The notes beneath the pieces are model-generated. The model saw only the letters and a program-made list of their open reading frames with translations, did no database searches and was not told the origin of the DNA. The translations under genes and the position numbers were made by a program. A DNA stretch of 64,000 bases from NCBI GenBank assembly GCA_004321905.1, contig SCQF01000012.1, positions 5,411-69,410 on the forward strand, written 5' to 3'. The stretch comes from Verrucomicrobiota bacterium (GTDB lineage: Bacteria; Verrucomicrobiota; Kiritimatiellia; CAIQIC01). Positions 7,471-63,452 of the stretch are shown here, piece after piece. Each line of letters starts with the position of its first letter. Position 1 is the stretch's first letter.

Positions 7471-7521
7471 TTTTCCAAGGTTTGGAAAAGGGAACAGGCG
7501 TTTTTCCCAAACCTTGGAAAA
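7471..7521. repeat. Paired palindromic units (TTTTCCAAGGTTTGGAAAA, 12 bp, TTTTTCCCAAACCTTGGAAAA) forming a ~51-bp dyad
   Basis: Two units whose centres are mutually reverse-complementary (GGT vs ACC), so the whole pair is one larger palindrome. They lie between the SPFH operon start (7428) and the lipoprotein stop (7542). Confidence 0.8.
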
Positions 7522-9891: not shown

Positions 9892-9942
9892 CTTTGCCAA
9901 GGCTTGGAAAACGGGAAGGCCGATTTTTCCAAACCTTGGAAA
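9892..9942. repeat. Paired palindromic units (tttGccaaggcttggaaaa, 13 bp, ttttccaaaccttggaaaa)
   Basis: Located between the htrA stop (9951) and the downstream lipoprotein start (9880). The second unit ends only 9 bp after the htrA stop, and the first ends 12 bp before the next ATG. Confidence 0.8.
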
Positions 9943-9950
9943 ACGCCTCA

Positions 9951-12029
9951 TCATGGGGCATTTTTCTTGCTCGCGCCGTTCCCGTTGGTCCAATCCGGCT
10001 CCAGTTCGGCAAACAGCGTATGCACGCCACGCTTCAAGAAAAATACGACGCGCCTGGCTTTGGCGTGCGCGGCTTGCTTGAGCCGTTTTTCGGCGGTCGC
10101 CACGTCGCCGGTCGTCGTGCCGTCAATCGCCAGCAAAATGTCGCCACTGGCCAAGCCGGCCAGTTGCGCCCAGCCGCCGGTTTCGACGACGGCGATCTTT
10201 ACGCCTTGGAGGTCCGCCGGAATATCGCGATGAATCCGTTCCAGTTCCGTGAGCTTCTCGATGGTCAGATCGAAAACATCGTCTTTATAGGGTAGATGCT
10301 CCTCGGCGGTGCTCAAATCTTCCTCTAGTTTTAGAGTGAGCGTTTGCGACTGGCCGCCGCGCAAAATTTCGCAGGGCACAGCGCGACCCACGCGGTAGCG
10401 CCGGATCTGCGCGTAGATATCGCTCACGTCTTCGGGCCGCTCGCACTTCACCGGGTCGCCATCGAACTTCAGCAGGATGTCGCCCTTTTGAAAACCGGCG
10501 CGTTCGGCGGAGTGGCTGCGATAGACCAGTGTGACCAACGCGCCGCTGCGGCCCTGCAAGCCCAGTGCTTCGGCCAGTTCCGGGCTGAGCGCCTGCAATT
10601 CGGCGGAGAGTCCCGGCTTGCGCGCCGGTTCGACGTCGGGCCGTTTCTGCTCCTTACCGATTTTCACGACCGTCAAATACTGTCGTTTGCCGTGATCGAA
10701 TTTCACGAGCACCGGCTTGGTACCTTCGATGCCCTTGAGTTGCGCGTCGGTCACGCGGCGTAAATCGGCCACGCTGTTCACCGCGGCCTGGGCCACTTCC
10801 AGAATGACGTCACCTTCGTTGACCGCCGGCTTGGCGTCGCTCACGGCGCTCGCCAAACCCACGGAAACGACCAGCACGCCATTGGTGTTCGGCCGTTGCC
10901 ATTCGATGGCCGCGATCAGCGTCAGGTTACGCGCCACCATGCCCCATTCCTTGAGTTCCACGTCGTTGCTTTGCGCCTTGCCGCGCACGCGGGTCGTCAG
11001 GGTCAGCTTGTGTTCCTTGCCGTCGCGCAACGTCACGAGTTCCACTTGTTTGCCGACCGGCGTGGAAAGGAGCAGCCGGTTGAAAGCCGGTAAATCTTCC
11101 GGGATGCGGGCATCCACCTCCACGCCGTCATATTTTTGCAACACATCGCCCGCCTTGAGTCCCGCCGCCGCCGCGGGCGAATCGGGCAAGACACCGCCGA
11201 CGAGTACGCCACGTTCGATGCCCAGATTTTTGGGCCGCGCCTGTCCTTCGATGCCCAGCCAGCTCCGCTGCACACGGCCTGTCGCGATCAGTTGCTGCGC
11301 CACGTCTTTGGCGATGTTGCTCGGAATCGCGCCGCCCAAACTGCCCAAGCCGATTTCGTTGATGCCGATGATTTCGCCCGCGGGGTTCACCAGCGGTCCG
11401 CCGCTGTTGCCCGGATAAATCACGGCGTCGTGGCCGATCCAACGCACGACTGAACCGATGGCCTCGCCCTCTTCGCGGAAAGCACCCGCGCCGCCGAACA
11501 TGGAAGGTAGCATGAGCTGCGTGTTGCTGATAATACCCTTGGTCACCGACTGCGAGACGCCCGCCGGACAACCCATCGCCAACGCCACGTCGCCCACCCT
11601 CAACTGGTCGGAATCGCCGAATTGCGCCACGTGCAGCGGCGCTTTATTTTTGCGTTTGCTCAAATCAAGTTGCACGATGGCGATGTCCGTCAGCGGATCG
11701 GTCGCCACCAGCCGCGACTCGACTTCTTCGCCGTCGTACATCCGGCAGATCAGCCGCTTGCCGCGCCCGGCCACATGGTGATTGGTGATGATATAGCCAT
11801 CCTCGGAAATGATCGCGCCGCTGCCGGAACCGAGATTTTTTTCCAGCCGTCCGCTACGCGGCGACTCCATCACCACCATGATCCGCACCAGCGACTGGTA
11901 CATCCGGCTCACCGCGCGATCCACTTCCGCCGCGCTGATGGCGGGCGTTTCTGCGTGCGCGGGCAGGCGGGCGAGCAGCGCCGCCGAAAAAACGAGCAGC
12001 CCCACAAAGCGCCGGCGGTTTGGTTGCAT
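9951..12029 (-). CDS. htrA: HtrA/DegP/DegQ-family periplasmic serine endopeptidase with multiple PDZ domains
   Basis: The S1C catalytic triad motifs are intact (TNHHVAG, DIAIVQLD, GNSGGPLVN) and there is a signal peptide. The long C-terminal region is PDZ-like. Confidence 0.9.
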   Translation of the reverse strand: MQPNRRRFVGLLVFSAALLARLPAHAETPAISAAEVDRAVSRMYQSLVRIMVVMESPRSGRLEKNLGSGSGAIISEDGYIITNHHVAGRGKRLICRMYDGEEVESRLVATDPLTDIAIVQLDLSKRKNKAPLHVAQFGDSDQLRVGDVALAMGCPAGVSQSVTKGIISNTQLMLPSMFGGAGAFREEGEAIGSVVRWIGHDAVIYPGNSGGPLVNPAGEIIGINEIGLGSLGGAIPSNIAKDVAQQLIATGRVQRSWLGIEGQARPKNLGIERGVLVGGVLPDSPAAAAGLKAGDVLQKYDGVEVDARIPEDLPAFNRLLLSTPVGKQVELVTLRDGKEHKLTLTTRVRGKAQSNDVELKEWGMVARNLTLIAAIEWQRPNTNGVLVVSVGLASAVSDAKPAVNEGDVILEVAQAAVNSVADLRRVTDAQLKGIEGTKPVLVKFDHGKRQYLTVVKIGKEQKRPDVEPARKPGLSAELQALSPELAEALGLQGRSGALVTLVYRSHSAERAGFQKGDILLKFDGDPVKCERPEDVSDIYAQIRRYRVGRAVPCEILRGGQSQTLTLKLEEDLSTAEEHLPYKDDVFDLTIEKLTELERIHRDIPADLQGVKIAVVETGGWAQLAGLASGDILLAIDGTTTGDVATAEKRLKQAAHAKARRVVFFLKRGVHTLFAELEPDWTNGNGASKKNAP

Positions 12030-12104: not shown

Positions 12105-12155
12105 TTTTCCAAGGGTTGGAAAAAGTCAACCGTCCATTTTCCCGGCCTTGGAAAA
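12105..12155. repeat. Paired palindromic units (ttttccaagggttggaaaa, 13 bp, ttttcccggccttggaaaa)
   Basis: About 75 bp upstream of the htrA start and immediately downstream of the response-regulator stop (12168). Confidence 0.75.
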
Positions 12156-12167
12156 CCGCGCCGGGCC

Positions 12168-12842
12168 TCAGTCGGCGACGTGGTTTTGATGCCAAGCGCT
12201 GGCCACGTCTTTCGGCCCCAGCCCCCAACGCCGCGCGTAGGCCAGCAATTCGCGGTCTGAATGGACGTCCAGTTTGCGTCGCGTGTTTTTCCGATGGACG
12301 CTCACGGTGTGTTCGGAAATCCTGCACTGTGCCGCGATTTCCGGGTCGCTGAAGCCGCCCACGACCAGCCGCAGCACTTCCTGTTCCCGCGTGCTCAAAA
12401 TTTTGTGAAAGGCCTCGGCGGAGGCGAGGTATTGTTTCCGGACGGCGAGGAAGCCCGGCGAAAAAAAGACGCAGCCAGCCAACACACGTTGTACGGCTTC
12501 CGTAACCACGCTCAACGGGCTGGGTTTTTCCACATAGCCTTGCACGTCGCTCTGGATCACCCGGTAGATGGTGTGGGGATCCATGTAGGCCGAGAGCATG
12601 AGAATCTTGACCGTCGGCACGACCGCGCGCAATGGCGCGATCATTTCCAGGCCGCTGGTGCCGGGCAGTTGAATGTCCAACAAGATTAGCTCGGGCTGGG
12701 TTTGCGTCGCCAGCGGATAGGCTTCGGCGGCGCACCGCGCGCAGCCCACGATGCTCAGATTCAATTGGCTGGCCAAGCACGCCGATAGCAGGTCGGCGAG
12801 CAACTGCTCATCTTCTACGATCATGACCGACGGGCGTTTCAT
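12168..12842 (-). CDS. NarL/LuxR-family two-component response regulator (REC + LuxR HTH), orphan with no adjacent kinase
   Basis: A receiver domain is present (MIVEDEQLLADLL...ILLDIQLPGTSGLEM...KILMLSAY), followed by a LuxR HTH (LSTREQEVLRLVVGGFSDPEIAAQCRISEHTVSVHRKNTRRKL). Confidence 0.85.
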   Translation of the reverse strand: MKRPSVMIVEDEQLLADLLSACLASQLNLSIVGCARCAAEAYPLATQTQPELILLDIQLPGTSGLEMIAPLRAVVPTVKILMLSAYMDPHTIYRVIQSDVQGYVEKPSPLSVVTEAVQRVLAGCVFFSPGFLAVRKQYLASAEAFHKILSTREQEVLRLVVGGFSDPEIAAQCRISEHTVSVHRKNTRRKLDVHSDRELLAYARRWGLGPKDVASAWHQNHVAD

Positions 12843-15432: not shown

Positions 15433-17889
15433 TCAGGGCGCAACGATCTCGAAGGGGATCGCCGGTAGCGTGGTCGCCTGAAATCGTTGTTTGTTGTTGG
15501 GTGACTTATTTTTCGCGGAGCTGCCGGAACGTTTCAGGAAAACGGCGACGATCAAGTTGCCTTTTTGGCCGGGTTTGTTTTTCGTCGCATCACTGACCAC
15601 AATGAGATCACTGCCGCCGGAGACGGACACAACTTTTTGGAGGGTGATGCCGTCGGGGGGATCGCTCAGTTCCATCTCCAGTTTCCCGTATGAAATGCTG
15701 GACGGCACGTTCACCTGGATACGCGCCGTACCGCCGGACGGGATTTTGATCGGCAACGCACTGAGCACTTTGGCGGCGGCTTTTTGTTTGAAGTAGCCGC
15801 CCACCGCCACATCCAAGTCTTGGAAAGGAACCAGATGCCGGTAGAAAAAGGCCTGCATCATGTCTTCAGCCGGCACCGCGATATGGGTCACCACCTGGCT
15901 GTTGATCGTCGCCTGACCTTCAAAAACCGGATGAAATACTTCCACCGGCGAGGACGGGGCGACGGTCAGCGTAAGCTTCACTTGGTCTTGGCCGGCGGGT
16001 ATCCCGGTGCCGCTCAACTTGAAGTCTTTTGGCGCATTTTTGAGCGTAATCGCGATCGCGTTGGTGAAGCCGTCGTGACGCACCGCATAGACGGTGAGCG
16101 GCACCGTGCCGCCGATGCGGACATTGATGCTGGACGGAACCAGGCGGAGCGCAAAATCAGGACGCGGCGCGCTGAGGCGCAAGCGGTAGGCAAATTCCGG
16201 GCCACCTTGGTGCTGCGTATCCGCGATCTCCAGATAATACGCGCCATTCGTCGGCAGCGTGGCGCGGAGGTAGGAATCGGCGTGATGCGTTTCAAGACCC
16301 GAACCCTTGTCCTCAAAATCGTCATTGAACGCAATCTGTTTGCCGTTGGCATCGGTCAGCCGGAGTTCGGAATCGAGCGGCGAGTTGAGGCGGCGCGCGA
16401 TGACTTCGGCAATGATCTGGTCGCCGGTTTTGCCTTCGAATGTGAAAAAGTCCCGATCGCCGGGGTGATCAATACGGCCGTTCACGATGATCGGGAGCGT
16501 GACCGCTTGGGCGGTCCGGCGCTGGCCGTTGGATTTTTTCTCAAAGCACTCGGGCAAGGCGTCCACCACAAACGGCGCGAAATTGGATATCCAGTCGTCC
16601 TGGCGCACAGAAACAGGATAGATGCCCGGCGCTTTACTTTGATTGTCGAGCGTCAGCCGATGGCTCGGTAGATTCCAGCCTTTCAACTCGACGGTCGTTG
16701 AGGCGCCGGCAGGGCCGCCGAGGGGAAAGAGACTCGTGATGAAAGGCATTTCGCCGAGGGTGATGCGATAGACGAAATCTTCACGACCACGATAAATGGA
16801 ATCCTTGATTTCGAGCACATAATCGCCATCCGCCGGGATTTCATAATAGAGCACCGGATCAGGATTGAAACGGAAGTCATCGTCATAGGCCACTTCTTTG
16901 CCCGCCGCGTCGTAGAGCGTCAGCGTGGCTTGGAACCATCCGGGCACCGCATCGGCCAGGTAGGGAATCAGCTCGCGTGCGCTGGCGGCGATGACGAGGT
17001 GTGTGCCCTGCTGGGCCGCGAAACGGAAACGATCCACGGTGCCGGGCATGATCTGGCCGTTGACGACGGTGGGTAGCGTGATCTTTGTCTCCGTTTTTTC
17101 TTTGGCGATTTTCGTCTGATAACCAAGTTGGGCTTCCTTGAGCGTCCGTTGTCCCCGAATGGTCTTGATCGCCGGCTTGGTGAATTCCGGCATTTGGCCG
17201 ATCTTGAAGAGTAGTGGATTCGTCAACCCTTGCGGTGTTCCCAAGCGTACCTCGCGGTCGCCCGGCTTGGCGTCCGCGGCCACCGTAACGCGCAGCATGG
17301 CGAGTTCGGAGATCGCCGGGTTCTCCGGCCTTCTGACGCTCGAATACGCTTTCTTGCGTATCTCATAGAGCAGCTTGTCGTCGGCATCCGTCCAGGTGGC
17401 GTGGGCATATTTCTTTTTGATGGCTTCCAGTTCCTGGTCGTCTGTGGCGCTATCGCTCTTGATGGTCTTGGAATTTTTGAAGCTCCGGAACTTTTCCAAG
17501 GCCCGGAAATCGTTCCGTACCACGGCCCGGCGCGCCATCAACTCATCGAGTTGAATGCGCAGGTCATTAAGTTCCTTCTGCGTAATGGGCCGAACAAAGT
17601 CGGTGAGGGTGGCTTGCACGCCGCCGCCCGAGATGAACACATTGGTGATGCCGATCAAAAACTGTCCACCAATGACCACCTCGAACGTGGTGCCTTGGCG
17701 TCCGCCGGCGGGATAGACATAGCCGATGTGCGGCGCGCTTTGCTGCGCCCCCGCGCTGCCGGGAAACAGCAGCGCTGCCGCAAAAACCGTTAGCGCACAC
17801 CAGCGTGCGGCGCCGTTTTCCAAGGCTTGGAAAAAGGTGCGGTTGTGTTTTCCAAGCCTTGGGAACTGCTGTCGAAATAGGGTTCTCAC
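15433..17889 (-). CDS. Large secreted hypothetical protein with pre-peptidase C-terminal (PPC)-like beta-sandwich domains
   Basis: An 818-aa ORF with a hydrophobic signal-like segment (CALTVFAAALLFPGSAGAQQ) and repeated D-x-D-x-Y-x-L-E-I motifs (GDYVLEIKDSIYRGREDFVYRITL; GAYYLEIADTQHQGGPEFAYRLRL). The start is ambiguous because the first 25 codons run through a palindromic-repeat pair. Confidence 0.4.
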   Translation of the reverse strand: MRTLFRQQFPRLGKHNRTFFQALENGAARWCALTVFAAALLFPGSAGAQQSAPHIGYVYPAGGRQGTTFEVVIGGQFLIGITNVFISGGGVQATLTDFVRPITQKELNDLRIQLDELMARRAVVRNDFRALEKFRSFKNSKTIKSDSATDDQELEAIKKKYAHATWTDADDKLLYEIRKKAYSSVRRPENPAISELAMLRVTVAADAKPGDREVRLGTPQGLTNPLLFKIGQMPEFTKPAIKTIRGQRTLKEAQLGYQTKIAKEKTETKITLPTVVNGQIMPGTVDRFRFAAQQGTHLVIAASARELIPYLADAVPGWFQATLTLYDAAGKEVAYDDDFRFNPDPVLYYEIPADGDYVLEIKDSIYRGREDFVYRITLGEMPFITSLFPLGGPAGASTTVELKGWNLPSHRLTLDNQSKAPGIYPVSVRQDDWISNFAPFVVDALPECFEKKSNGQRRTAQAVTLPIIVNGRIDHPGDRDFFTFEGKTGDQIIAEVIARRLNSPLDSELRLTDANGKQIAFNDDFEDKGSGLETHHADSYLRATLPTNGAYYLEIADTQHQGGPEFAYRLRLSAPRPDFALRLVPSSINVRIGGTVPLTVYAVRHDGFTNAIAITLKNAPKDFKLSGTGIPAGQDQVKLTLTVAPSSPVEVFHPVFEGQATINSQVVTHIAVPAEDMMQAFFYRHLVPFQDLDVAVGGYFKQKAAAKVLSALPIKIPSGGTARIQVNVPSSISYGKLEMELSDPPDGITLQKVVSVSGGSDLIVVSDATKNKPGQKGNLIVAVFLKRSGSSAKNKSPNNKQRFQATTLPAIPFEIVAP
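17816..17866. repeat. Paired palindromic units (ttttccaaggcttggaaaa, 13 bp, ttttccaagccttgggaac)
   Basis: Located between the DUF1501 stop (17902) and the start region of the 818-aa ORF. Confidence 0.8.
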
Positions 17890-17901: not shown

Positions 17902-19260
17902 TCACATGATTTCCGTCAGCCGGCCGGCCGAGGCCAGGTTTTCCCCTGTGGCGGGCATCACGCGGACATCCCAACCTTGCGGATGCGGCAGTTTCGCCTC
18001 GGTGTCGATGCCGAGCAGTTCGTACATGCTGCCGATGAGATCGGGCGGATAAATCTGGCGGCCCGTCACTTCTTCGCCGGTTGCGTTGGTGGAGCCCACC
18101 ACCCGTCCGCCCTTGAAGCCGCCGCCGGCGACCACGTGACAGAATGCTTTGCCAAAGTGGTTGCGGCCGCCGTTCCACGGCGGTTCCCACTGCACCCGCG
18201 GTGTCCGGCCGAATTCGCCGCCCCACCACACAATGGTGCTGCCGAGCAAGCCGCTATCCGACAAATCCTGCAACAGCGTTGCCATCGCTTTATCCATGAT
18301 CGGCAAGTTGCGACGCATGGCCTGGAAATTCTCCTTATGCGTGTCCCAGCCTTTGTAATTGATCGTGACATAGGGCACGCCGCGTTCGACCAGCCGCCGC
18401 GCCATCAGGCACGCTTGCCCGAACGTGTTGCGGCCATATTTCTCGCGCAACGCGTCCTTCTCCTGCGCAAGATCAAACACCTTGCCGGCATCGCCCAGAA
18501 TGAGGTCATAGGCTTGGTGTTCGCACTGCTCTGCGGCGGCCAAGCTGGGATCGTTCTTGATGACGACGCCCAACGTATTCAGATTGTGGAGGAGTTCGCG
18601 CCGGGCGCGTTGCCGCTTGTCGGAGATGCCGCGGGCCACGACGCCTTCGACGACAAAGGGCGTTTGGCCCGGATCGCCGCCCGTCGCAAACGGTTTGGCG
18701 CGTGAACCGAGGAAGCCCGATTCGGAAAAACGGCCCTGTAATTCGGTCAACACGATGTAGGGCGGGATCAATCCTTTGTAACCGGCTTCATAGCCTTTGA
18801 AGAGCGAAACCACCGCGCCGACACCCGGATAAACCTGTCCCGTGCCGGGCTTGCGTCCCGTTTGCACTTCGTAGGATGCGGTTTCGTGGCCATTCACGCC
18901 GTGGGTCATGCCGCGGAGAATGGAATACTTGTCGGCCTGCTTGGCCAATTCGGGCAGCAGCTCACAAATGCGGATACCGGGTACGTTGGTGGCAATCGGT
19001 TTGCTCAGCGGTCCGCAGAAATCATTGCCCGCTTCGGGTTTGGGATCGAAGGTGTCGAGATGACACGGGCCGCCCCACATCCAGATTTGGATGACGGCCT
19101 TGGCGGTCGCCGGTCGCACGGCGGCGCGCGCGGGGACGATCAAGCGGTCGGCCAGCAGCAAACCCGCCGTGCCAAGAAACGTGCGCCGCACGGCCTCGCG
19201 CCGTGTGATGGGCCCGCCGCGCAGACTGGCCAGTATTCGCTCGTTCTGATTTGAGTTCAT
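17902..19260 (-). CDS. DUF1501 domain protein (sulfatase-like fold, Tat signal)
   Basis: A Tat motif is present (RRTFLGTAGLLL), along with conserved DUF1501 blocks (WGGEFGRTP). Confidence 0.8.
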   Translation of the reverse strand: MNSNQNERILASLRGGPITRREAVRRTFLGTAGLLLADRLIVPARAAVRPATAKAVIQIWMWGGPCHLDTFDPKPEAGNDFCGPLSKPIATNVPGIRICELLPELAKQADKYSILRGMTHGVNGHETASYEVQTGRKPGTGQVYPGVGAVVSLFKGYEAGYKGLIPPYIVLTELQGRFSESGFLGSRAKPFATGGDPGQTPFVVEGVVARGISDKRQRARRELLHNLNTLGVVIKNDPSLAAAEQCEHQAYDLILGDAGKVFDLAQEKDALREKYGRNTFGQACLMARRLVERGVPYVTINYKGWDTHKENFQAMRRNLPIMDKAMATLLQDLSDSGLLGSTIVWWGGEFGRTPRVQWEPPWNGGRNHFGKAFCHVVAGGGFKGGRVVGSTNATGEEVTGRQIYPPDLIGSMYELLGIDTEAKLPHPQGWDVRVMPATGENLASAGRLTEIM

Positions 19261-21048: not shown

Positions 21049-21390
21049 ATGGCGGTGACGATCATGAGCGTGTTGGCACAGTGGATGTGCGCCGCCGGAG
21101 CTGGGGCGCGATCCGCAGATCGAGGTGCCCGGCAGCGCGCCCGAGGCCTGCATCGCACGCGACAAAATTCTCAAGCTGGTCCCCGACGTGGTGCTGCTCG
21201 ACCATCGAAATGCTGCGCATGGATGGCCTCATATTCCTACGCAAGCTGATGCACTATCATCCCGTACCCGTCATTATTGTCTCTTCGCTCACACCACCGG
21301 GCGGCCAGGTCGCACTGGACGTCATCGCTGCCGGTACCGTGGATGTGGTCTGCAAGCCCAGGCCGCAACTGCCATGGGCCAATAGGGCAG
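21049..21390 (+). pseudogene. Decayed CheB/CheY-like receiver-domain gene remnant (frameshifted, truncated)
   Basis: Two frames together read ...DPQIEVPGSAPEACIARDKILKLVPDVVLLD / IEMLRMDGLIFLRKLMHYHPVPVIIVSSLTPPGGQVALDVIAAGTVDVVCKP. This is the conserved REC domain of protein-glutamate methylesterase CheB, split by a frameshift, with no intact N-terminus or methylesterase domain. Confidence 0.4.
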
Positions 21391-21569
21391 AAATGCTGGC
21401 GAACAAAATCAAGGCCGCCGCGCTGGTGAAATTTAGTCGCAACGCCCCTGCGGTCGCCGGTGCGCCCGCCGAAGCGATCCGACTCGGTGCGGCCTGCGAG
21501 GTCGTGCCGCTTCAAAATATTTGCCGAGCGCCTGATCACGCACGCCTGCAACGGCGCAACATGACGCGG

Positions 21570-21620
21570 GTTTCCAAGGCCTGGAAAACATAACCGTCCC
21601 TTTTTCCCAAGGTTGGAAAC
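21570..21620. repeat. Paired degenerate palindromic units (gtttccaaggcctggaaaa, 12 bp, tttttcccaaggttggaaac)
   Basis: Located at the 3' end of the CheB-like remnant. Confidence 0.7.
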
Positions 21621-21637
21621 GGCATGCGCTATATGTC

Positions 21638-21658
21638 TATATGCACACATCTGCATAT
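21638..21658 (+). promoter_or_regulatory. Second copy (21/22 nt identical, opposite orientation) of the arsR operator/promoter: tatgtcT-atatgcacacatctgca-TATGGT
   Basis: tatatgcacacatctgcatat matches the reverse complement of 1271-1292. Its flanks resemble the -35/-10 of the arsR promoter, and it points toward the small ORF at 21774. Confidence 0.45.
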
Positions 21659-21773
21659 GGTTGGAAGGCATCGTGCCCGCCCGTATCCCCCATGGCCAGA
21701 AATTGCGGTTGCCTGCCGCCGTCGCTCCGTGTAGAGTCCGCGCCCGCAAACGACGCGAGTCAGGAGAATTATC

Positions 21774-21971
21774 ATGGGCGACATGTTACGACGAAATAAG
21801 AATCTACGCCGTCCGCGCAAGAGTGGCACCGACCGCCGCCGCCGCGAACAGACGCACCGCCGCCGCCTTTTGGCGCTGGGCGTGCCAGCCGAGCAGTTGC
21901 GGACGATGGATGCCGTACAACTGCGCGCACTGCTCAAAGAGAAGATCAAAGGACACCAGCAGGCCGCTTGA
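21774..21971 (+). CDS. Hypothetical small basic protein (65 aa)
   Basis: The N-terminus is Arg-rich (RRNKNLRRPRKSGTDRRRREQTHRRR), followed by a predicted helix. There is no recognisable family. It sits about 115 bp downstream of the duplicated ArsR-type operator. Confidence 0.3.
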   Translation: MGDMLRRNKNLRRPRKSGTDRRRREQTHRRRLLALGVPAEQLRTMDAVQLRALLKEKIKGHQQAA

Positions 21972-22086
21972 CGACGCGGGGCGGGGCGTATTTCCGGCCT
22001 TGCAAAAGGCGGCGATTGCGCTAGAGTGAGTCCGTTCGACGCGTTGCCCGCCAAGGTGGCGGCGAAAGTTTGATAACGAGGAAATT

Positions 22087-22440
22087 ATGAAGACGATCAT
22101 TCGCTCGGTATGTGTGGTGCTGGCAGTGGCGGCCTTGAGCGGTTGCGGCGTGCCCAAGGAAGAGCACCAGAAGCTCCAAGAAAAATGTGCCGGGCTTGAG
22201 CAACAACTCGGTCGCGCGCAGCAGGACATCCAGGCGCTCCAGAACGCATTGCAGCAGAAGGAAGCCGAAGCGGCGGGTCGCGTTCAGGAAGCCGATCAAC
22301 GTGTACAAGCGATGATGCTGGTGCTGAAGAAAAAGCAGCAGGAATTGGACGCGAAGGGCGGCAAGGCGACGAGCGCCAAAGTCGGCACGACGACCAAGAA
22401 GCCTGCGGCCAAGAGCACGAAGAAACCGGCTGGCCACTAA
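22087..22440 (+). CDS. Lipoprotein with coiled-coil and Lys-rich tail, hypothetical
   Basis: A lipobox is present (VLAVAALSGC) and the coiled coil is Q/E-rich (LQEKCAGLEQQLGRAQQDIQALQNALQQKEAEA). Confidence 0.5.
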   Translation: MKTIIRSVCVVLAVAALSGCGVPKEEHQKLQEKCAGLEQQLGRAQQDIQALQNALQQKEAEAAGRVQEADQRVQAMMLVLKKKQQELDAKGGKATSAKVGTTTKKPAAKSTKKPAGH

Positions 22441-22464
22441 AATAACAGCTAACAAATAGCGGAA

Positions 22465-22505
22465 GGGCGGGTTTTCCAAGGCTTGGAAAGTCCGCCCTTT
22501 CTGTT
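22465..22505 (+). terminator. Rho-independent terminator built around a palindromic unit (GGGCGGg-TTTTCCAAGGCTTGGAAAG-tCCGCCC-TTTCTGTTT)
   Basis: GC-rich outer stem (GGGCGG/CCGCCC) encloses the 19-bp unit and is followed by a T-rich tract, 25 bp after the lipoprotein stop. Confidence 0.5.
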
Positions 22506-22511
22506 TCCGTG

Positions 22512-23171
22512 TTATTCCGTATGTTCCGTGGACAAATCCGCAGGTGTCAATTCGGCAAAGGAACGGATGTAGCGCTCTGCACCAGCCAAGTCCTCCCTCG
22601 TGCGCATGGTCAACACGCCGATCACGCGTATGCCGCCGGCGAGTGCTGCGGCGACGCCGGCGGGCGCGTCCTCGAATACTACGCACTCTGCTGGCGCGCG
22701 ACCAAGCAAGGCCGCGCACTTCAAAAATACTTCCGGGTCCGGTTTGCCGTGCGACACGTCTTCGGCAGTGATCGCACCGGCGAACAAGCCGTGCAATTTC
22801 AAGGCCGCGATGCACGCCTTCACATTGGCGCGTGGCGCAGAAGAGCCAATCGCCGCGGGAATGCCTGCCGCTTGAAGTTGGCGTAGAAAATCAATCACGC
22901 CCGGTATGGCCTCAATGCCGCCGCTTGCGACGCGCTCGCGGAAAATCGTCTCCTTGCGGTGCATCAATCGTCGGATTTCGCCGGCGTCTTGCGTCCAGCG
23001 CAACAGTTCGGTAATGACTTTTTCGTTCTTGAGGCCGAGGCCGCCGAGGCCCGGCACGTTGGGCGGCGGGAAATTTTCTTCCGTCGCGAGTTGCGTCCAA
23101 CTGGCCACGTGCAGCCGCCCGGAATTGACCACGACGCCGTCCCAATCGAAAATGGCACCGATATTTTTCAT
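22512..23171 (-). CDS. HAD-superfamily hydrolase (beta-phosphoglucomutase-like subfamily IA)
   Basis: The HAD motifs are present: motif I (AIFDWDGVVV) and the others (AAIGSS...KPDPEVF...FEDAPAGVAAA). The start is the internal Met 23169-23171. Confidence 0.8.
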   Translation of the reverse strand: MKNIGAIFDWDGVVVNSGRLHVASWTQLATEENFPPPNVPGLGGLGLKNEKVITELLRWTQDAGEIRRLMHRKETIFRERVASGGIEAIPGVIDFLRQLQAAGIPAAIGSSAPRANVKACIAALKLHGLFAGAITAEDVSHGKPDPEVFLKCAALLGRAPAECVVFEDAPAGVAAALAGGIRVIGVLTMRTREDLAGAERYIRSFAELTPADLSTEHTE

Positions 23172-23174
23172 AAG

Positions 23175-23225
23175 TTTTCCAAGGGTTGGAAAAGCGACGG
23201 CGGCCGTTTTCCAAACCCTGGAAAA
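23175..23225. repeat. Paired palindromic units (ttttccaagggttggaaaa, 13 bp, ttttccaaaccctggaaaa)
   Basis: The first unit begins 4 bp upstream of the HAD start codon, and the pair lies 27 bp downstream of the tsf stop. Confidence 0.8.
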
Positions 23226-25095: not shown

Positions 25096-25569
25096 GTTCA
25101 TTCCTCCGTTATTCGAGCTCCGCACCATGCGTGGCTCAATCCGCTTTGGCGATCCCGGGAGGCCGGGCCGCGCTCGCTTCCGCTCTTCATCTGAAGAACT
25201 GGGCGCGGACTATACCAGCGCATCTCCGCCGCGCAAGCTATTTTGCTTTCATAACTTTCTCGTGAACATCCGCCGACAAATCAACGAATTTCTCATCTCT
25301 TCGTAATCTGCGCTGAACATAGACGGCTTAAATTTGTGTCCAAATCTTTACCTGAAAATGAGGTAAAAGAAAAATGGGGTGGCTGATGGACTCAAAGGCC
25401 CCCGACCGATTGTGGTTGCGAGATTATAGAAGGCTTTGACGGCCGGCTGGATCAGGCGGCGGAAGCGTTGGCCGCGATGGGTGGAAAGCCAGCCGACGGT
25501 TGAAACGGAAAGCGAACTCACCGCGCATGAACATTCCAACCATGTATTCTTGAACCTGAAATGTGGTGA

Positions 25570-25764
25570 GTCTTATCCCCTTCAGCCTTTCGGCAACGGT
25601 TGACGCGCCTGTGCGAAAAAATTGGCATGAAGAAACCCAAGCCGCCTTATGGGTTACGTCATACCTTGGGGACAGATGAAGGCGCGAGCAATATCAATCA
25701 ATCTGTGCTCGCGCAACTCATGGGACATTCAAGGTTGCAGACCACAGACCGCTGCGAATGTTGA
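25570..25764 (+). pseudogene. C-terminal remnant of a tyrosine recombinase (phage-type integrase)
   Basis: The frame reads AFRQRLTRLCEKIGMKKPKPPYGLRHTLGTDEGASNINQSVLAQLMGHSRLQTTDRCEC*. Box II of tyrosine recombinases is present (LRHT...LMGHS...TT.R), with the catalytic Tyr codon changed to Cys (TGC). There is no upstream N-terminal domain. Confidence 0.45.
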
Positions 25765-25950
25765 CGAAGCCCATAAAAAAGCGATGGCGGCTACTGGAAA
25801 ACGAATTTCCGCGTTGTTGCCAAATCTGTTAAGGCCGAAGTTGTGGAGCCAAAATGAGTCCCAATTTGCCACCGATTTGCCACGGGGAAGTTTTCGTAAG
25901 AACGGGAGGAAATTGGAAGCTCATAAAACCATTGATTCTCTTGTGTTTTC

Positions 25951-26027
25951 TGGTGGGCGATACAGGACTTGAACCTGTGACCTCTTCCATGTCAAGGAAG
26001 CGCTCTAGCCAACTGAGCTAATCGCCC
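25951..26027 (-). tRNA. tRNA-Val (anticodon GAC)
   Basis: The reverse complement reads GGGCGATTAGCTCAGTTGGCTAGAGCGCTTCCTTGACATGGAAGAGGTCACAGGTTCAAGTCCTGTATCGCCCACCA. It has a standard cloverleaf, anticodon loop tTGACat and an encoded CCA. Confidence 0.8.
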
Positions 26028-28529: not shown

Positions 28530-29583
28530 AGCGCGGCTCTTTGCGCAATAGATCGAATTCTGGACGCGCCAGCCAACCCAACGCCTTGCGTGAATCCACC
28601 AACTTGATCGCGTGCTCCAACACATCGAGCGCTTGCGAACGTTTTTCCTCGATATGCGACAGCACTTGCGACAGCCGGAATTGAATCACCGAGGATTGCG
28701 GTGTGGCCTCGCCCAGCTCGCTCAACACGACCGCCGCTTTTTCCCAATTTGCCAGCTTGATGAGCATCATCGCGTAACTCTCCGTCGCCGAGACATCTTC
28801 GGGGCGCATACGCGTATAGTTGCCGAGATATTCCGCCGCCTTGGGCAAATCGCCGTTCCGCTGCCGGATCATCGCCAGATTGAAATAGGCCAACGCGTAG
28901 TTGGTGTCCATCCCGACGGCGGCCAGCAGACACGCCTCGGCCTTGGCCATGTTGGTCAAACCAAGATAAGCGATACCGAGGTTGTTGACCACGCCGAAGG
29001 ACGGCGGCTCCGCCTGCAACGACTGCTCGAACGCCTGCGCCGCGGCGGCATAATTCTGTTGCTGGAGATAGATCAAGCCTTGCAGCCGCGTAACACCTTT
29101 CATGCCTGGAAAAATTCGCTGGGCTTTGTCGAGTTCCTCCAACGCGACCGCATAACCGCCACTCTGCGCGGCCTTTTCGCCTTCGAGCAAGTGATAGACC
29201 GCCTGTTTCACCCAATCCACCGTCAACTCCGCCGGCTTGTCCGGCAGTGGTGTAGGCCGGATGTACTTCAAAGGATCAATCAGGTAGAGCGGTAAGGTCT
29301 CCTCGACCGGCGTATTGGCGGTGCGCGCGGTTTCCGTCACAACCCGTTCCTCTGGATGATAGAGGCCCTTTTTGTTGCGGCTCGTCCAATAATAAATCAT
29401 GCCGATCACGAGCACCACCGCCAGAACGGTCACCAGCAAGAGCGCGATGGCTTGCCGCCGCTGACGCAGCAACAATTCCCGCACAAAGAGATCCATTTGC
29501 GAAGGACCACCTGGGGCCGCCGCCGGCTCGACGGGCTTGGCCGGAACTCCGCTACCATAAATGTTGCCGCGCTGCTCATTCAT
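28489..29583 (-). CDS. TPR-repeat membrane-anchored protein
   Basis: A single TM helix (AIALLLVTVLAVVLVIGMIYYW) is followed by 6 or more TPR motifs (AYLGLTNMAKAEACLLAAVGMDTNYALAYFNLAMI...). The start is taken at the internal Met 29583. Confidence 0.7.
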   Translation of the reverse strand: MNEQRGNIYGSGVPAKPVEPAAAPGGPSQMDLFVRELLLRQRRQAIALLLVTVLAVVLVIGMIYYWTSRNKKGLYHPEERVVTETARTANTPVEETLPLYLIDPLKYIRPTPLPDKPAELTVDWVKQAVYHLLEGEKAAQSGGYAVALEELDKAQRIFPGMKGVTRLQGLIYLQQQNYAAAAQAFEQSLQAEPPSFGVVNNLGIAYLGLTNMAKAEACLLAAVGMDTNYALAYFNLAMIRQRNGDLPKAAEYLGNYTRMRPEDVSATESYAMMLIKLANWEKAAVVLSELGEATPQSSVIQFRLSQVLSHIEEKRSQALDVLEHAIKLVDSRKALGWLARPEFDLLRKEPRFKTLSESLAKGQE

Positions 29584-29633
29584 GCTTGGAAAATAGCAGG
29601 ATTGGAGATTTGCAGTCAACGCCGGGGTATACC

Positions 29634-29684
29634 TTTTCCAAACCTTGGAAAAGCGCCGCCGCTATTTTTCCAGGGCTTGGAAAA
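29634..29684. repeat. Paired palindromic units (ttttccaaaccttggaaaa, 12 bp, tttttccagggcttggaaaa), centres in the reverse order (ACC then GGC)
   Basis: Located between the TPR gene start (29583) and the aminotransferase stop (29685). An extra half-site gcttggaaaa sits at 29584-29593, abutting the TPR ATG. Confidence 0.8.
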
Positions 29685-32082: not shown

Positions 32083-32155
32083 GGTTGCTCCTAAATGAAC
32101 CGCAGGGAAAATAGGGTTTGTGCCCACGGGAATCAAGTGGGGAGTTGCGGCGCGA

Positions 32156-32205
32156 TTTCCCAGCCTTGGAAAAAGCGCCTATTCCGTTTTCCAAGGCTTG
32201 AAAAA
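32156..32205. repeat. Paired palindromic units (tttcccagccttggaaaa, 12 bp, ttttccaaggcttgaaaaa)
   Basis: Located between the NDK-like start (32082) and the NUDIX stop (32208). Confidence 0.75.
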
Positions 32206-33773: not shown

Positions 33774-34573
33774 AGTTTTCCATCATCACTCCCAACTTCA
33801 ACGGCGCGCGATTTTTGGAAACCGCGCTGACTAGCGTGGCCGCGCAGCGCGGGCCGGACGTCGAGGTGGAGCATTGGATCATGGATGGCAGCAGCACGGA
33901 TGGCTCGCAAGAGATTATTCAGCGCTTTCTCGGACCAGAAACATTTCTTGTGACCGAACCCGACCGCGGGCCGGCCGATGCGATCAACAAGGGGTTGCGG
34001 CGCGCCACCGGCGACATCGTAGCGTGGCTGAACGCCGATGACCGCTATCATGCTCAAGCCCTGCGCCGTGCCGCCGAAATATTTACCGCACAACCCTGCG
34101 CAGCTTTTGTTTTTGGCCACTGCCGGATCGTCAATGAGGGCGATGCGGAAATCCGGCGCGGCATCACCCGTTTCAAGGAGATGTTTTTCCCGTGTTCTTC
34201 TCGTTTCACGTTCCAGTGCATCAACTATGTTTCTCAACCGGCCATGTTTTTCCGTCGTACGGCCATGGCGCGTGCCGGTTTTCTGCGCACCGACCTCAAA
34301 GCCGCTTGGGATTATGAATTCATGTTGCGCTTGTGGCATCACGGTGGCGCGGCCTGCGCACCCGGCGCACCGTTGGCGGATTTCCGCTGGCACCCCGGCT
34401 CTATCAGCGGCCAGACGTTCCGCCGCCAATTCCGCGAGGAATGGGAGGCCGCTGTTGCCGACGCCGGTCGCTACTCGCTGCAAGCGCTTATTCATCTCGG
34501 CGTACGCTTCGGCATCGTCGGCAGTTATAAGCTCATGGCCGCTATTCGGAGCAAAGGAACTGCATGCGCATAG
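33770..34573 (+). CDS. Glycosyltransferase family 2
   Basis: GT-A motifs are present (FSIITPNFNGARFL, WIMDGSSTDGS, WLNADD). It is paralogous to the genes at 46098 and 47430. Confidence 0.8.
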   Translation: MKFSIITPNFNGARFLETALTSVAAQRGPDVEVEHWIMDGSSTDGSQEIIQRFLGPETFLVTEPDRGPADAINKGLRRATGDIVAWLNADDRYHAQALRRAAEIFTAQPCAAFVFGHCRIVNEGDAEIRRGITRFKEMFFPCSSRFTFQCINYVSQPAMFFRRTAMARAGFLRTDLKAAWDYEFMLRLWHHGGAACAPGAPLADFRWHPGSISGQTFRRQFREEWEAAVADAGRYSLQALIHLGVRFGIVGSYKLMAAIRSKGTACA

Positions 34574-35703
34574 GCGTCAACACTCTATTTCTGATTCCCG
34601 GCGAAGTTGGCGGTTCGGAGACCTATCTGCTCGAAACCCTCCACGCCTTGGCCGGCACGCAGCCAGACGTGGAGTTCTTACTCTTCACCAACCTGGAGAA
34701 TGACGCCTTTCTGTGCGAACGATTCAGCCCTTTTCCCAATGTAGATTTTCATTTGCTACCTTTCCGGGCGCGTAATCGTGTTGTGCGTATTTTGCGTGAG
34801 CAATTCGAACTGCCACGCGTTGCCGAGGCGGCCGCCGTGGACGTGCTCTGGTCGCCCGGCTATGTCGCGCCGCTGCGCGCTCCGTGTCCGCAAGTGGTCT
34901 CGATTTTGGACATGCAATACCTGAGTCATCCGTCCGATCTTGCCTGGTCGGCGTGGCTGGCAACCCATGCGTTGGTGATGCAAACCGCCAGGCGTTGCGA
35001 TCACATCCTGACGCTCTCGGAATTTTCCAAGCGCGAGATCGTGCGCCATACCGGTGTTGACCCCGCGAAAGTGACCCCCACCCTGTTGGCCGCCGGTGAT
35101 ATCTTCTTTACGCCACAGCCGCCAGACATGTTGGCGCACGTCCGGCGCGAGTTGGTCGGTGATGACACGCCCTATATCTTCTGCGTCGCCAACACCTATC
35201 CACATAAAAACGTTCACCGATTGATTGAAGCGTTCGGCGTATTGCAAACGGAGTTCCCCCATCGTTTGGTTTTGGAAGGTTTGCCGCGCCGCGGCGAACG
35301 GCGTGTCCAAGCGGCGCTGGCGCGACTGCCCGACACCCACCGCGTGACGCGGCTGGGCCGCACGCCGCGCGCCGAACTGGCCGCACTCTATCAAGCCGCC
35401 GATTTGTTTGTTTTTCCCTCGCTCTACGAAGGCTTCGGCCTGCCGGTGCTCGAGGCGATGGCCGCGGGAACGCCGGTCGTGGCGATGCGTCAAGCTTCGG
35501 TGCCGGAAGTTGGCGGCGACGCCATCACCTATTGCGAACACGATGACACGCCAGAACTAGTCGCCTGCATCCGCGAGATGTTGCGGCTTGATCCCGCCGC
35601 CCGCGCTGCGCGAATCGCCGCCGCCCGCACGCGCGCCGCCACCTTCAACTGGAACCACACCGCCGGCGCTATTGCCGATGTGCTGCGCGCGACCGCCGCT
35701 TAG
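34564..35703 (+). CDS. Glycosyltransferase family 4 (GT-B)
   Basis: The C-terminal GT4 signature is present (FVFPSLYEGFGLPVLEAMAAGTPVV). Confidence 0.8.
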   Translation: MRIGVNTLFLIPGEVGGSETYLLETLHALAGTQPDVEFLLFTNLENDAFLCERFSPFPNVDFHLLPFRARNRVVRILREQFELPRVAEAAAVDVLWSPGYVAPLRAPCPQVVSILDMQYLSHPSDLAWSAWLATHALVMQTARRCDHILTLSEFSKREIVRHTGVDPAKVTPTLLAAGDIFFTPQPPDMLAHVRRELVGDDTPYIFCVANTYPHKNVHRLIEAFGVLQTEFPHRLVLEGLPRRGERRVQAALARLPDTHRVTRLGRTPRAELAALYQAADLFVFPSLYEGFGLPVLEAMAAGTPVVAMRQASVPEVGGDAITYCEHDDTPELVACIREMLRLDPAARAARIAAARTRAATFNWNHTAGAIADVLRATAA

Positions 35704-35707
35704 CTGG

Positions 35708-35758
35708 TTTTCCAAGGCTTGGAAAACCAAAACCTTTCTTTTTCCAAACCTTGGAACA
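35708..35758. repeat. Paired palindromic units (ttttccaaggcttggaaaa, 13 bp, ttttccaaaccttggaaca)
   Basis: Starts 5 bp after the GT4 stop. Confidence 0.8.
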
Positions 35759-36033
35759 CAATTCATCAACTGCGGCATAGAAGACATACACTATGTGATC
35801 GGCCGCAACAAAATGGTACCGGAGAACTGAACCGTACGCGTCTTAAAGGCCGAGCGCATCGGGGGCACTCGAAGCTCGAGTCTTGCGGCCTGTTGGGGCG
35901 GAGCCGGCGGGGATCAAGCAACCACGGTGCCGCGGGTTTAGAATTAACTGGACAGGCTCACGTGGTGGCGTTACAAGTTTTACGGATTTTTAAAACATCA
36001 AAATCCAGGGTCCGCTCCGGAGCGGACGGCGTG

Positions 36034-57037: not shown

Positions 57038-57964
57038 ATGGTAACGTATAATGCGGTAGCATTACTGCCTGATGTTCTGACCCGCCTCCTCGTTGTCACC
57101 AATTACCCTGCTGTGCGTTGGTTGGTGGTGGATAACGCCAGCACCGATGGCACGGCGGACATGGTCGCCCAACAGTTCCCGCAAATTCGCGTGGAACGCA
57201 TGGCTGCCAACCTCGGTTATCCCGCCGCCTTGAACCGCGCGATCGCGCTGGCGGAGACAGACTTGGTGGCGCAGGTCAATCCCGACGTGCTCGTGGAGTC
57301 TGATTGGTTGGCTCCGTTGGTAGAAGCGCTGTTGCGCGCGCCTAACATCGGCATGACTGGCGGACGCATTTTGAACTCCGACGGCACTACGCAATTCTGC
57401 GGCACGCGCTTGCATCCCTTATACGGCCTGCTTGGCAACCGCTTCCCGTTTGATCCCGGAAATCATGAGGCGGAGGTGGATTTCCATAGCCCACTTTTCC
57501 TGGTGCGGAAAACGGCGTGGCAGGTAGCCAACGGTATGAACGAGCTTTATTCGCCTGGTTATTATGAAGATGCCGAATTGGGCTGGAATCTTCGCCGAAC
57601 GGGCTGGCGAGTATTATTCGTGCCGGCCAGCCGGGCGGTGCACCTCGGTTCCGCCAGTTTTGGGCGCTTGGCGCGTCACGATTTTATGCGCATCTATGAA
57701 CGTAATCGCCTGCTTTTCGTTTTCCGCAATTTCCCGACAACCTGGCTGACACTACACGTGCTCCTGGAGGGTATAAAAGCTGTGGAATGTTTACTCCGTG
57801 GCTATTTCCGGGAATATCTTGCGGCATGGCGCGAAATATTTCACCGCCGTGCCGAAATCCGATTATTTCGCGCAACTTGGCAACACACCGATTCCATCCG
57901 CAACCGGCGTTGCCGCCAGAGCGCGGGCCAAGGTGAAAAAACACACGTGGCGCACAGGAACTGA
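57038..57964 (+). CDS. Glycosyltransferase family 2
   Basis: MVTYNAVALL, VVDNASTDGT, VNPDVLV and a C-terminal YYEDAELGWNL motif are present. Confidence 0.75.
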   Translation: MVTYNAVALLPDVLTRLLVVTNYPAVRWLVVDNASTDGTADMVAQQFPQIRVERMAANLGYPAALNRAIALAETDLVAQVNPDVLVESDWLAPLVEALLRAPNIGMTGGRILNSDGTTQFCGTRLHPLYGLLGNRFPFDPGNHEAEVDFHSPLFLVRKTAWQVANGMNELYSPGYYEDAELGWNLRRTGWRVLFVPASRAVHLGSASFGRLARHDFMRIYERNRLLFVFRNFPTTWLTLHVLLEGIKAVECLLRGYFREYLAAWREIFHRRAEIRLFRATWQHTDSIRNRRCRQSAGQGEKTHVAHRN

Positions 57965-57970
57965 CCGCTG

Positions 57971-58020
57971 TTCCAAAGCTTGGAAAAGCCCACGTGCGAG
58001 TTTTCCAAGCCTTGGAAAAA
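57971..58020. repeat. Paired palindromic units (ttccaaagcttggaaaa, 13 bp, ttttccaagccttggaaaa)
   Basis: Starts 6 bp after the GT2 stop and lies about 130 bp upstream of the PPIase start. Confidence 0.75.
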
Positions 58021-59833: not shown

Positions 59834-60429
59834 GGCGCAAACTCCGCGAGTTCCTTTTGCAACTGCTGGCGCGCGTAGAAAAGCCGGGAGCGCACGGTGC
59901 CCTCCGACGTTTTCGTGATGCGCGCAATTTCGTGATGCTGCAAGCCCTGTATATCATGCAGCACCACCGCCGCTCTGTGATTCTCCGACAGCTTCTGGAG
60001 CGCAACGTTCAATTTTTTTTGTAACTCACCAATCGTCACATCGCGGAACGGCGATTCGCGGGAACGCAACTCGACGAACGTCGGATCGCGCTCCACGCCT
60101 TGATCCATGTCGTCCAAGCGCAACGCGGCCTGATCGTGCCGCCGTTTTTCGCGGAAATTCAACGCGTGGTTTACCGCGATCCGATAAATCCACGTATAAA
60201 ACGAACTGTGCCCGTGGAACCGCCGCAGCGCCGCATGGGCTTTGAGAAACACGTCCTGCGCGAGATCCTGCGCATCCTCGCGATGCGAGGTCATGTGATA
60301 CAGCAGATTATAGATGCGCGGATGATGCCGTTGCACGAGCTCTTCGTACGCGGACAAGTCGCCGCGTTGCGCGCGCCGGATCAGGTCGCGTTCGTCGTCG
60401 GGCGTTTTTTGAGGTGCAACGGCTTCCAT
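59830..60429 (-). CDS. ECF-subfamily RNA polymerase sigma-70 factor
   Basis: Sigma70 region 2 (RIYNLLYHMTSHREDAQDLAQDVFLKAH) and region 4 (ELQKKL...AVVLHDIQGLQHHEIARITKTSEGTVRSRLFYARQQL) are present. Confidence 0.85.
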   Translation of the reverse strand: MEAVAPQKTPDDERDLIRRAQRGDLSAYEELVQRHHPRIYNLLYHMTSHREDAQDLAQDVFLKAHAALRRFHGHSSFYTWIYRIAVNHALNFREKRRHDQAALRLDDMDQGVERDPTFVELRSRESPFRDVTIGELQKKLNVALQKLSENHRAAVVLHDIQGLQHHEIARITKTSEGTVRSRLFYARQQLQKELAEFAP

Positions 60430-60480: not shown

Positions 60481-60533
60481 TTTTCCAAGGTTTGGAAAAG
60501 TACGCGCGCTGTTTTTCCACGCCTTGGAAAAAA
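60481..60533. repeat. Paired palindromic units (ttttccaaggtttggaaaa, 13 bp, tttttccacgccttggaaaaaa)
   Basis: Located between the ECF sigma start and the peptidase stop (60541). Confidence 0.8.
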
Positions 60534-63433: not shown

Positions 63434-63452
63434 TTTTCCAAGGCTTGGAAAA
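63434..63452. repeat. Single palindromic unit TTTTCCAAGGCTTGGAAAA
   Basis: About 80 bp upstream of the peptidase start and 8 bp downstream of the stop of the repeat-fragment ORF. Confidence 0.8.

Follow-up and report, generated by a model that had tools for sequence, protein, structure and literature searches.

The 64-kb window analyzed here (the whole stretch of 64,000 nucleotides, from a Verrucomicrobiota bacterium) carries a pair of palindromes in the gap between the stop codon of tsf (23252) and the ATG of a HAD hydrolase gene (23171), one of them almost in contact with that start codon. The question raised by this locus is what such an element does at the boundary between two genes. A sequence-only reading had treated closeness to start codons as the key property, had taken it to argue against a conventional promoter, and had offered either a transcribed intercistronic spacer or a protein-binding or insulating site. 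The doublet at 23175–23225 consists of TTTTCCAAGGGTTGGAAAA (unit 23175–23193), a 13-nt spacer (23194–23206), and TTTTCCAAACCCTGGAAAA (unit 23207–23225).

A matrix built from 404 units describes the repeat as a 19-bp dyad, TTTTCCAAK-S-MTTGGAAAA, in a 9-1-9 layout with G or C in the center (consensus TTTTCCAA-K-S-M-TTGGAAAA). The preferences of the two half-sites are symmetric, each unit carries about 28 bits of information, and the unit contains no stop codon in any frame. Lineage dialects alter both half-sites together, with AAT-S-ATT in one genome and AAG-S-CTT in another. The spacers are fixed in length; spacers and flanks carry about zero information in the 404-unit matrix, and they differ from copy to copy and are unrelated. 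The 12-bp spacers were also checked for a second motif, and nothing was found in them beyond A/T tracts extended at the spacer ends. Because the flanks are not complementary (3.32 pairs of 12 versus 3.25 of 12), the palindrome ends sharply and a unit does not usually cap a longer stem. Positions 8 and 10 were complementary in 159 units versus 186 expected, i.e., less often, a result that says little about a hairpin since both positions would lie in the loop. Compensatory changes in the arms were not seen, and double changes were too few to help. Within doublets, the center-base pairs among the matches listed were G,C in 47, C,G in 29, and the same base in 76, so orientation is near random and strictly inverted, REPIN-like doublets are ruled out. 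A literature search on the motif sequence and on palindromes of Kiritimatiellota found no earlier description.

The window contains 29 units at up to 3 mismatches versus 0.33 expected, and 45 half-sites versus 2.9 expected. There are 14 arrays, namely 11 doublets and 3 good single units, at a density of one per 4.6 kb. Every doublet measures 32 bp from start to start with a 13-bp spacer, all 14 arrays are intergenic, and none of the 25 good units falls in coding sequence. Apart from the doublet in the tsf-HAD gap, doublets were found at 7471–7521 (between a stop at 7542 and the ATG of an SPFH-domain gene at 7428), 9893–9943 (between the stop of an HtrA-like gene at 9951 and the ATG of a trypsin-like gene at 9880), 12105–12155 (between a response-regulator stop at 12168 and the ATG of an HtrA-like gene at 12029), and 17816–17866 (35 nt after a stop at 17902, with an uncertain start of the downstream gene). 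The doublet at 29634–29684 abuts the stop of an aminotransferase gene (29685) and lies 50 nt from the ATG of a TPR gene, and that at 32155–32205 follows a stop (32208) by 2 nt and precedes a start (32136) by 18 nt. Those at 35708–35758 and 57969–58019 each lie 4 nt after the stop of a plus-strand reading frame (the gene 34564–35703 and the ORF 57038–57964, respectively), while that at 60481–60531 lies 9 nt after a stop at 60541, the next start being TTG at 60471 or ATG at 60429. At 21570–21620, a plus-strand ORF (21081–21593) appears to stop (21591–21593) just 3' of the first unit. The plus-strand ORF at 21210–21593 resembles by eye a receiver domain of the CheY/CheB type, and the gene map of 21174–22512 is ambiguous. 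The single units occur at 2415–2433 (between a stop at 2449 and an ATG at 2375), at 22472–22490 (21 nt after the HAD stop at 22512), and at 63434–63452 (ahead of the large gene ending at 60541).

Other features of the window were also recorded. Rfam at gathering thresholds identified two tRNAs only in the whole window. Positions 36000–57900 hold a 22-kb block of plus-strand genes with a GC content of 52–56% versus 59–62% elsewhere, which encode an ABC-2/Wzt polysaccharide exporter, glycosyltransferases, methyltransferases, and a DegT aminotransferase. This block contains no good unit and only one match with 3 mismatches, at 54812; two exact lone half-sites occur near it, at 35023 and 39424. 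The block may be a recently acquired island of the O-antigen type or merely a long, tightly packed operon. A low-coding stretch at 25200–25950, beside the tRNA gene at 25954–26027, includes a fragment that reads by eye like the C-terminus of a tyrosine recombinase (LMGHSRLQTTDRC), and the stretch may be the remnant of an element that integrated at the tRNA.

The distances from array to start codon, where the starts are secure, are 3, 12, 18, 39, 42, 50, and 75 nt. Those from the upstream stop to the array are 0, 2, 4, 4, 7, 9, 12, 15, 20, 21, 26, and 35 nt (median, 9). The element thus does not as a rule abut start codons or keep a fixed distance to them, and the closeness that had been put forward as its key property gives way to distances of 3 to at least 75 nt and arrays that simply fill gaps. 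Contact with a start codon occurs at two or three loci because arrays there fill very short gaps between genes. The facts read from the sequence in support of such contact are all three present in the window DNA. The minus-strand ATG of the HAD gene (top base 23171) lies 3 nt from the unit at 23175–23193, and this start is secure since the HAD domain begins at residue 7. At the TPR gene, a lone half-site, GCTTGGAAAA (29584–29593), does touch the ATG at 29583. At the trypsin-like gene, which had been called a pseudoprotease, the distance of 12 nt to the ATG at 9880 stands, but the unit is located at 9893–9911 and not at 9892–9910. The related argument, that no room is left for a promoter and a Shine-Dalgarno sequence, holds at 2 or 3 arrays but not at the rest of the 14.

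The tsf-HAD gap and its counterparts in relatives give further detail on the doublet. On the mRNA strand the order is the tsf stop, ACGGCGGCC, a unit, CGGCCGCCGT, CGC, the second unit, and CTT-ATG. A GC stem surrounds the unit at 23207–23225, with the tsf-proximal flank as one arm and the 13-nt "spacer" as the 3' arm, and the unit here lies within the predicted terminator of tsf. The EF-Ts of the window is 100% identical to a protein of a MAG named "Verrucomicrobia bacterium" (P0001) and 69–80% identical to proteins of Kiritimatiellia. In a relative with 91% EF-Ts identity (L088), the spacer between tsf and HAD keeps both units; at 85% identity (L089), the stem-enclosed unit alone is kept and is followed by T8, giving a canonical terminator; at 78% (L091) and 74% (L087), the spacer has no unit. 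Since the spacers of relatives keep both, one, or no unit, sites turn over on the scale of genera. In L087, tsf is followed at 10838–10952 by a long, near-perfect inverted repeat of GTGTTCAGG and TTTCAG words, which may be another lineage-specific repeat family. The tsf-HAD spacer measures 565 bp in the lineage of L091 (10844–11408) and L092 (7472–8036) and holds inverted clusters of the word GCCAAG/CTTGGC; the 19-bp unit is absent throughout 17 kb of this lineage. Back in the window, GC-rich arms that complement each other (GGAAGGGCGGG and CCGCCCTTTC) flank the single unit at 22472–22490, and a T-rich run comes next. The region 22460–22510, with the HAD stop on one side and a small convergent ORF on the other, resembles a terminator that would work in both directions and has the unit at its tip. 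As a general rule, a unit at the tip of a longer terminator stem is ruled out by the non-complementary flanks, the copies at 22472 and 23207–23225 being exceptions. The 404-unit matrix bears out the polarity described earlier, with TTTT on the 5' side and AAAA on the 3' side; the conclusion drawn from it, that the element is the reverse of an intrinsic terminator, is correct for the unit itself, although these two copies cap GC-rich stems and that at 22472 looks like a real terminator.

The element was then traced beyond the window. Genome loci were gathered with the doublet pattern from one genome per species, and the analysis was repeated on a metagenome sample because the genome scan forced a 13-nt spacer; the metagenome scan was triggered by a single unit. 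Counts in both sets refer to the matches listed and are not fully independent, as several loci come from related MAGs. The named matches listed for the doublet pattern carried the labels Kiritimatiellia, Kiritimatiellales, Pontiellaceae, or Tichowtungia, or belonged to MAGs labeled Lentisphaerae or Verrucomicrobia. Among them was one exception, a Flavobacterium, which is at chance level, and some titles read only "uncultured bacterium." One carrier of the motif is Pontiellaceae bacterium B1224 (L041). In the NCBI taxonomy, the motif-bearing names represent two classes of Kiritimatiellota. Association with phages is ruled out by a single match in 2.9 million viral contigs.

Neither gene orientation nor gene function accounts for the placement of arrays. 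Among the matches listed, arrays in tandem, convergent, and divergent gaps numbered 72/16/16 in the genome loci versus a background of 344/62/62, and 30/6/5 in the metagenome sample versus 220/48/49. The tsf-anchored loci with independent gene calls show doublets in convergent gaps (L087 and L088) as well as in tandem gaps. Of the largest arrays (4 or 5 units), 4 of 9 among the matches listed were in convergent gaps, and the genes beside the largest arrays included no recurring candidate for a binding protein. The 90 genes whose 5' end faces an array span 139 Pfam families, none of which is represented by more than 3 genes, and a specific regulon is thereby ruled out. Together, the results on gap orientation and neighboring genes exclude a dedicated role as promoter or terminator as well as a specific regulon. 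In the metagenome sample, 62 of the 114 listed arrays were intergenic, 30 were deep in genes, and 22 were ambiguous. With a coding fraction of 0.86, this means that at least 54% of the arrays lie in 14% of the sequence. Placement in coding or intergenic DNA was assigned mostly by our own codon-usage gene caller, and ten in-gene cases were checked with Pfam or PDB.

The spacing between units points to duplex DNA. The genome loci gave unit-to-unit distances, among the matches listed, of 21–23 bp (6), 31–32 bp (162), 40–42 bp (8), 52 bp (2), and 63 bp (1). After removal of 31 and 32 bp, the remaining 34 distances are phased at 10.3–10.5 bp (R = 0.66–0.69). Distances in the metagenome sample, again among the matches listed, were 21–22 bp (15), 30–32 bp (79), 41–42 bp (10), 50–52 bp (4), 62 bp (2), 73 bp (2), 83–84 bp (3), 94 bp, and 105 bp, and without 31 and 32 bp the Rayleigh R is 0.76 at a period of 10.3 bp (p about 3e-13). 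The overall period over about 200 related loci is about 10.4 bp. This is the pitch of B-DNA and therefore a property of the duplex, which linkers of RNA or of single-stranded hairpins would not show. Deduplicated metagenome arrays among the matches listed comprised 95 with one unit, 53 with two, 17 with three, 8 with four, 1 with five, and 1 with six. One array of four units, spaced by 31, 30, and 22 bp, recurs in L098, L103, L110, L135, L164, and L160. The loci of the L098 type are metagenome assemblies (JAEEG… and LXOW… records) and resemble the five-unit array of a sheep-rumen MAG locus (L040); arrays of this type point to a lineage that favors two-turn spacing.

Copies inside coding sequence show how units can arise. 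Doublets of sister lineages lie within the Pfam domains MutS III, GH127, Mur ligase M, Dus, and SufBD. In a PreP-type peptidase, units occupy the same three positions in two genomes (L059 and L078); in L059 one site is a doublet and the other two are single units, and at one of these two the L078 ortholog has a doublet. These units are translated as IPNLGK, IFQTLEK, and similar peptides. The motif segments of the L059 protein align with Arabidopsis PreP (2FGE) without an indel, and the motif region of MutS does not differ in length from that of E. coli MutS. These two comparisons rule out an origin of the in-gene copies by insertion. Third codon positions of the PreP orthologs are 64% identical overall versus 19 of 21 in the unit cores (binomial p about 0.007). 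From the lack of indels and the excess at third positions, it follows that the motif overwrote existing codons and was kept by selection or drive and that it is not a mobile insertion. A PDB search with the protein of another locus (L031) gave no match. Insertions of the MITE or Rickettsia-palindromic-element type are likewise ruled out, there being no extra residues relative to orthologs and the spacers being unrelated.

Several other explanations were weighed against these results. It is very unlikely that the element is a promoter, possibly bidirectional, that yields leaderless or very short-leader mRNAs, the outcome that the sequence-only reading had itself named as refuting its view. A few gaps are too short for another promoter, such as those before the HAD gene (3 nt) and the trypsin-like gene (12 nt), a divergent gap in L006 places starts 42 and 16 nt from a doublet, and TTGGAA of the first unit and TTCCAA of the second are separated by 17 bp, as -35 and -10 hexamers are. 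TTCCAA, however, lacks the invariant A2 and T6 of the -10 hexamer, the conserved positions contain no TANNNT, the spacer carries about zero information, and a sigma-70 and terminator scan around 23175–23225 found nothing at the element. Single units and arrays of 3–6 units are common, the distance to start codons is not fixed, and arrays are also present in convergent gaps and well within genes. The dismissal of a conventional promoter is thus upheld, by the missing -10-like hexamer, the information-free spacer, and the copies in convergent gaps and genes. The rpsB gene, moreover, appears to have a promoter of the ordinary sigma-70 type, read by eye on the minus strand at 25190–25240 as TTGCGC-N16-TATAGT about 110 nt upstream of rpsB, which suggests use of such promoters; this site escaped the consensus scan because its -35 hexamer matches only 3 of 6 positions. 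Intrinsic terminators fare no better as a general account, since the tract polarity is reversed, no T enrichment follows the unit, and arrays occur in divergent gaps at the background rate. CRISPR arrays have direct repeats of 23–55 bp, spacers of 21–72 bp, few but long arrays, a leader, and cas genes. CRISPR was rejected for a symmetric, directionless repeat of 19 bp with spacers of 2–3, 12–13, or 22–23 bp, in mini-arrays of 1–6 units that are scattered over the DNA (14 in the 64-kb window and at least 175 in the metagenome sample).

A hairpin repeat of the REP/BIME or NIME type that accumulates in safe intergenic sites, possibly mobilized by a dedicated transposase, is improbable; the same reading at the RNA level, in which the transcribed element acts as a 3' stabilizer, processing site, or weak intercistronic terminator, is unlikely as well. 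Short gaps are largely made of the element, close behind stop codons, 4 of the 9 largest arrays among the matches listed are in convergent gaps, and arrays are enriched between genes. For a doublet, the predicted fold is a stem of about 19 bp (-26.6 kcal/mol, z = -4.7), and two window copies cap GC-rich stems, that at 22472 being terminator-like. Against this, the RNA fold of a single unit is weak (-5.1 kcal/mol, z = -1.8) and its arms lack compensatory changes, divergent gaps hold arrays at the background rate, and a period of 10.4 bp is meaningless for RNA or single-stranded hairpins. The restriction to extragenic DNA expected of REP/BIME repeats is seen in the window but not in the metagenome sample, where 30 of the 114 listed arrays are deep in genes. 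The alternating orientation and conserved linkers of such repeats are replaced here by near-random center bases and information-free linkers. With no similarity between spacers or flanks, nothing suggests recent copying, and the in-gene copies came about by substitution without indels. The part of the window ORFs that was scanned with Pfam contained no transposase. REP families are species-specific, and the unit is conserved in sequence across two classes of one phylum. Equally to be weighed is a self-recognition word, such as DUS/USS or another DNA-processing marker, kept by molecular drive through biased uptake or repair and recombination, an account that we regard as doubtful. The motif is over-represented genome-wide in intergenic and coding DNA, its coding copies arose by substitution with altered amino acids, lineage dialects are present, and arrays are independent of gene orientation and function. 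Units are also missing from the 22-kb lower-GC polysaccharide island, and the motif is nearly missing from viral contigs (1 match). Yet the unit is a 19-bp dyad whose copies lie integer turns apart, and to our knowledge the known uptake sequences are short, asymmetric, and not found in phased arrays. The density of one array per 4.6 kb is below that of DUS/USS, which number about one per kb and lie mostly in genes, the coding DNA of the window has no good unit, and a search for literature on natural competence in Kiritimatiellota found none. DUS/USS proper was rejected on the 19-bp dyad in phased arrays and on the 0 of 25 good units in coding sequence of the window.

The reading that we prefer, with a probability of roughly 55%, is that the units are sites on duplex DNA for a putative homodimeric protein specific to Kiritimatiellota, which would bind cooperatively on the same face of the helix and have a global role. 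An operator-type reading is favored because the dyad changes jointly in its dialects, the spacers are free in sequence and fixed in length, the copies are integer turns apart, the arrays contain up to 6 units, and the context is indifferent. The analysis shows a dyad-symmetric motif with helically phased copies, spacers that carry no information, indifference to orientation, and in-gene copies that arose by substitution and whose synonymous sites are constrained; from there, we infer protein binding, oligomerization, and the role of the complex. Each 19-bp unit would be bound by a homodimer of the putative DNA-binding protein, and dimers on neighboring units would be in contact on one side of the helix. 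A center-to-center distance of three turns would be preferred, with 2, 4, 5, or more turns also used. Arrays of 2 to 6 units would then form a higher-order nucleoprotein complex that probably bends or wraps the DNA. The spread of the element over the genome without a link to gene function or orientation implies that such a protein would act globally, as an architectural or insulating factor, and not on a particular regulon. An array complex just behind stop codons could block read-through transcription and occlude the adjoining DNA. At the HAD and trypsin-like genes, it would cover the translation-initiation region and any promoter, and behind the tsf stop it may block read-through or repress HAD. 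With regard to the two options offered initially, a protein-binding or insulating site fits the helical-turn-quantized spacing and the dyad-symmetric units, while a transcribed intercistronic spacer does not hold as the level at which the element works, as RNA does not explain the 10.4-bp period, the coding copies, or the orientation independence.

Some features weigh against binding by a protein. A nucleoid-associated protein or global regulator normally recognizes degenerate sites, and sites of about 28 bits in many copies per genome are an unusual match for one. Tight complexes inside coding sequence should hinder transcription. The intergenic preference in the window (0 of 25 in coding sequence) is also what an element simply tolerated between genes would show. 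A broader reading can be put forward tentatively, with the odds somewhat against it, in which Kiritimatiellota possess a genome-wide "punctuation" system, a selected dyad in at least two classes whose arrays, phased in whole helical turns, nucleate oligomeric complexes of a putative sequence-specific chromosomal protein that insulates or organizes transcription units. The arrays would lie mostly at gene boundaries and would also have been substituted into conserved coding domains, a part of this reading held just as tentatively. Its remaining part, put forward with the same reserve, is that this combination of properties is not known from any nucleoid protein, repeat family, or uptake sequence. 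If the arrays do bind a global, sequence-specific chromosomal protein, they would offer a direct handle on how the chromosome is organized and where transcription units end in a little-studied phylum of the PVC group with an important part in polysaccharide breakdown. The long, sharp motif permits genome-wide prediction of sites and can serve as bait for the protein, and its removal or re-spacing can serve as a test of function. The element is also a clean natural example of helical-phase constraint and a DNA-level signal that overrides the choice of codons and amino acids in housekeeping genes. In annotation, the arrays should not be read as promoters, terminators, CRISPR-like repeats, or mobile elements.

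Several known systems resemble the units in part. REP/BIME repeats of enterobacteria and pseudomonads and NIME/dRS3 repeats of Neisseria are short, multi-copy palindromes, mostly extragenic and often located after stop codons. They occur as singles, pairs, or clusters, and some are bound by IHF or gyrase. The units share with them short palindromes in many copies, often just after stops, as singles, pairs, and clusters, but differ in being non-alternating and helically phased, with unconserved linkers, an origin by substitution within genes, and conservation in two classes. DUS/USS and the cyanobacterial HIP1 palindrome are words of 8–12 bp, DUS and USS being asymmetric, and they are not known to us in arrays phased by the helical repeat. 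Like the units, they are over-represented throughout a lineage in genic and intergenic DNA, are superimposed on coding sequence, and form dialects; the units differ in being 19 bp long, dyad-symmetric, and arranged in helically phased arrays. Among regulators, the family of Lrp/AsnC (FFRP) offers a dimer on a palindrome (as predicted here), clustered sites, and two- or three-turn spacing on one face, and some of its members are global. The core TTCCAA-N3-TTGGAA presumably shares its arm-3 bp-arm layout with the 13-bp FL11 site. Lrp sites in nature are degenerate and usually A/T-rich in the center, whereas the units are highly conserved with a central G or C. Their cluster geometry is nevertheless that of Lrp/AsnC-type sites, in that 21–22 and 30–32 bp dominate and arrays reach 6 units. 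The clustered palindromes bound by proteins of the Lrp family lie on one face at spacings of two or three turns, and the DNA is wrapped around the protein oligomer (PMC2995911). NrdR boxes need integer turns between their centers, usually three (31–32 bp) and four in some lineages (PMC12051234). They resemble the units as tandem palindromic boxes with a spacer of fixed length and free sequence, the units showing a series of 2, 3, and 4 turns. NrdR boxes differ from them in being 16 bp long with even symmetry and another sequence, and in occurring few per genome at nrd promoters only, compared with 14 arrays in 64 kb that lie beside unrelated genes and with copies inside genes. An NrdR operator was rejected on box sequence, box length, and heterogeneous neighbors, the integer-turn spacing alone being shared. 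Overall, the units differ from NrdR and Lrp sites in sequence, in very high conservation, in copy number, and in lacking a regulon and are therefore read as the site of a putative global, probably architectural or insulating, protein.
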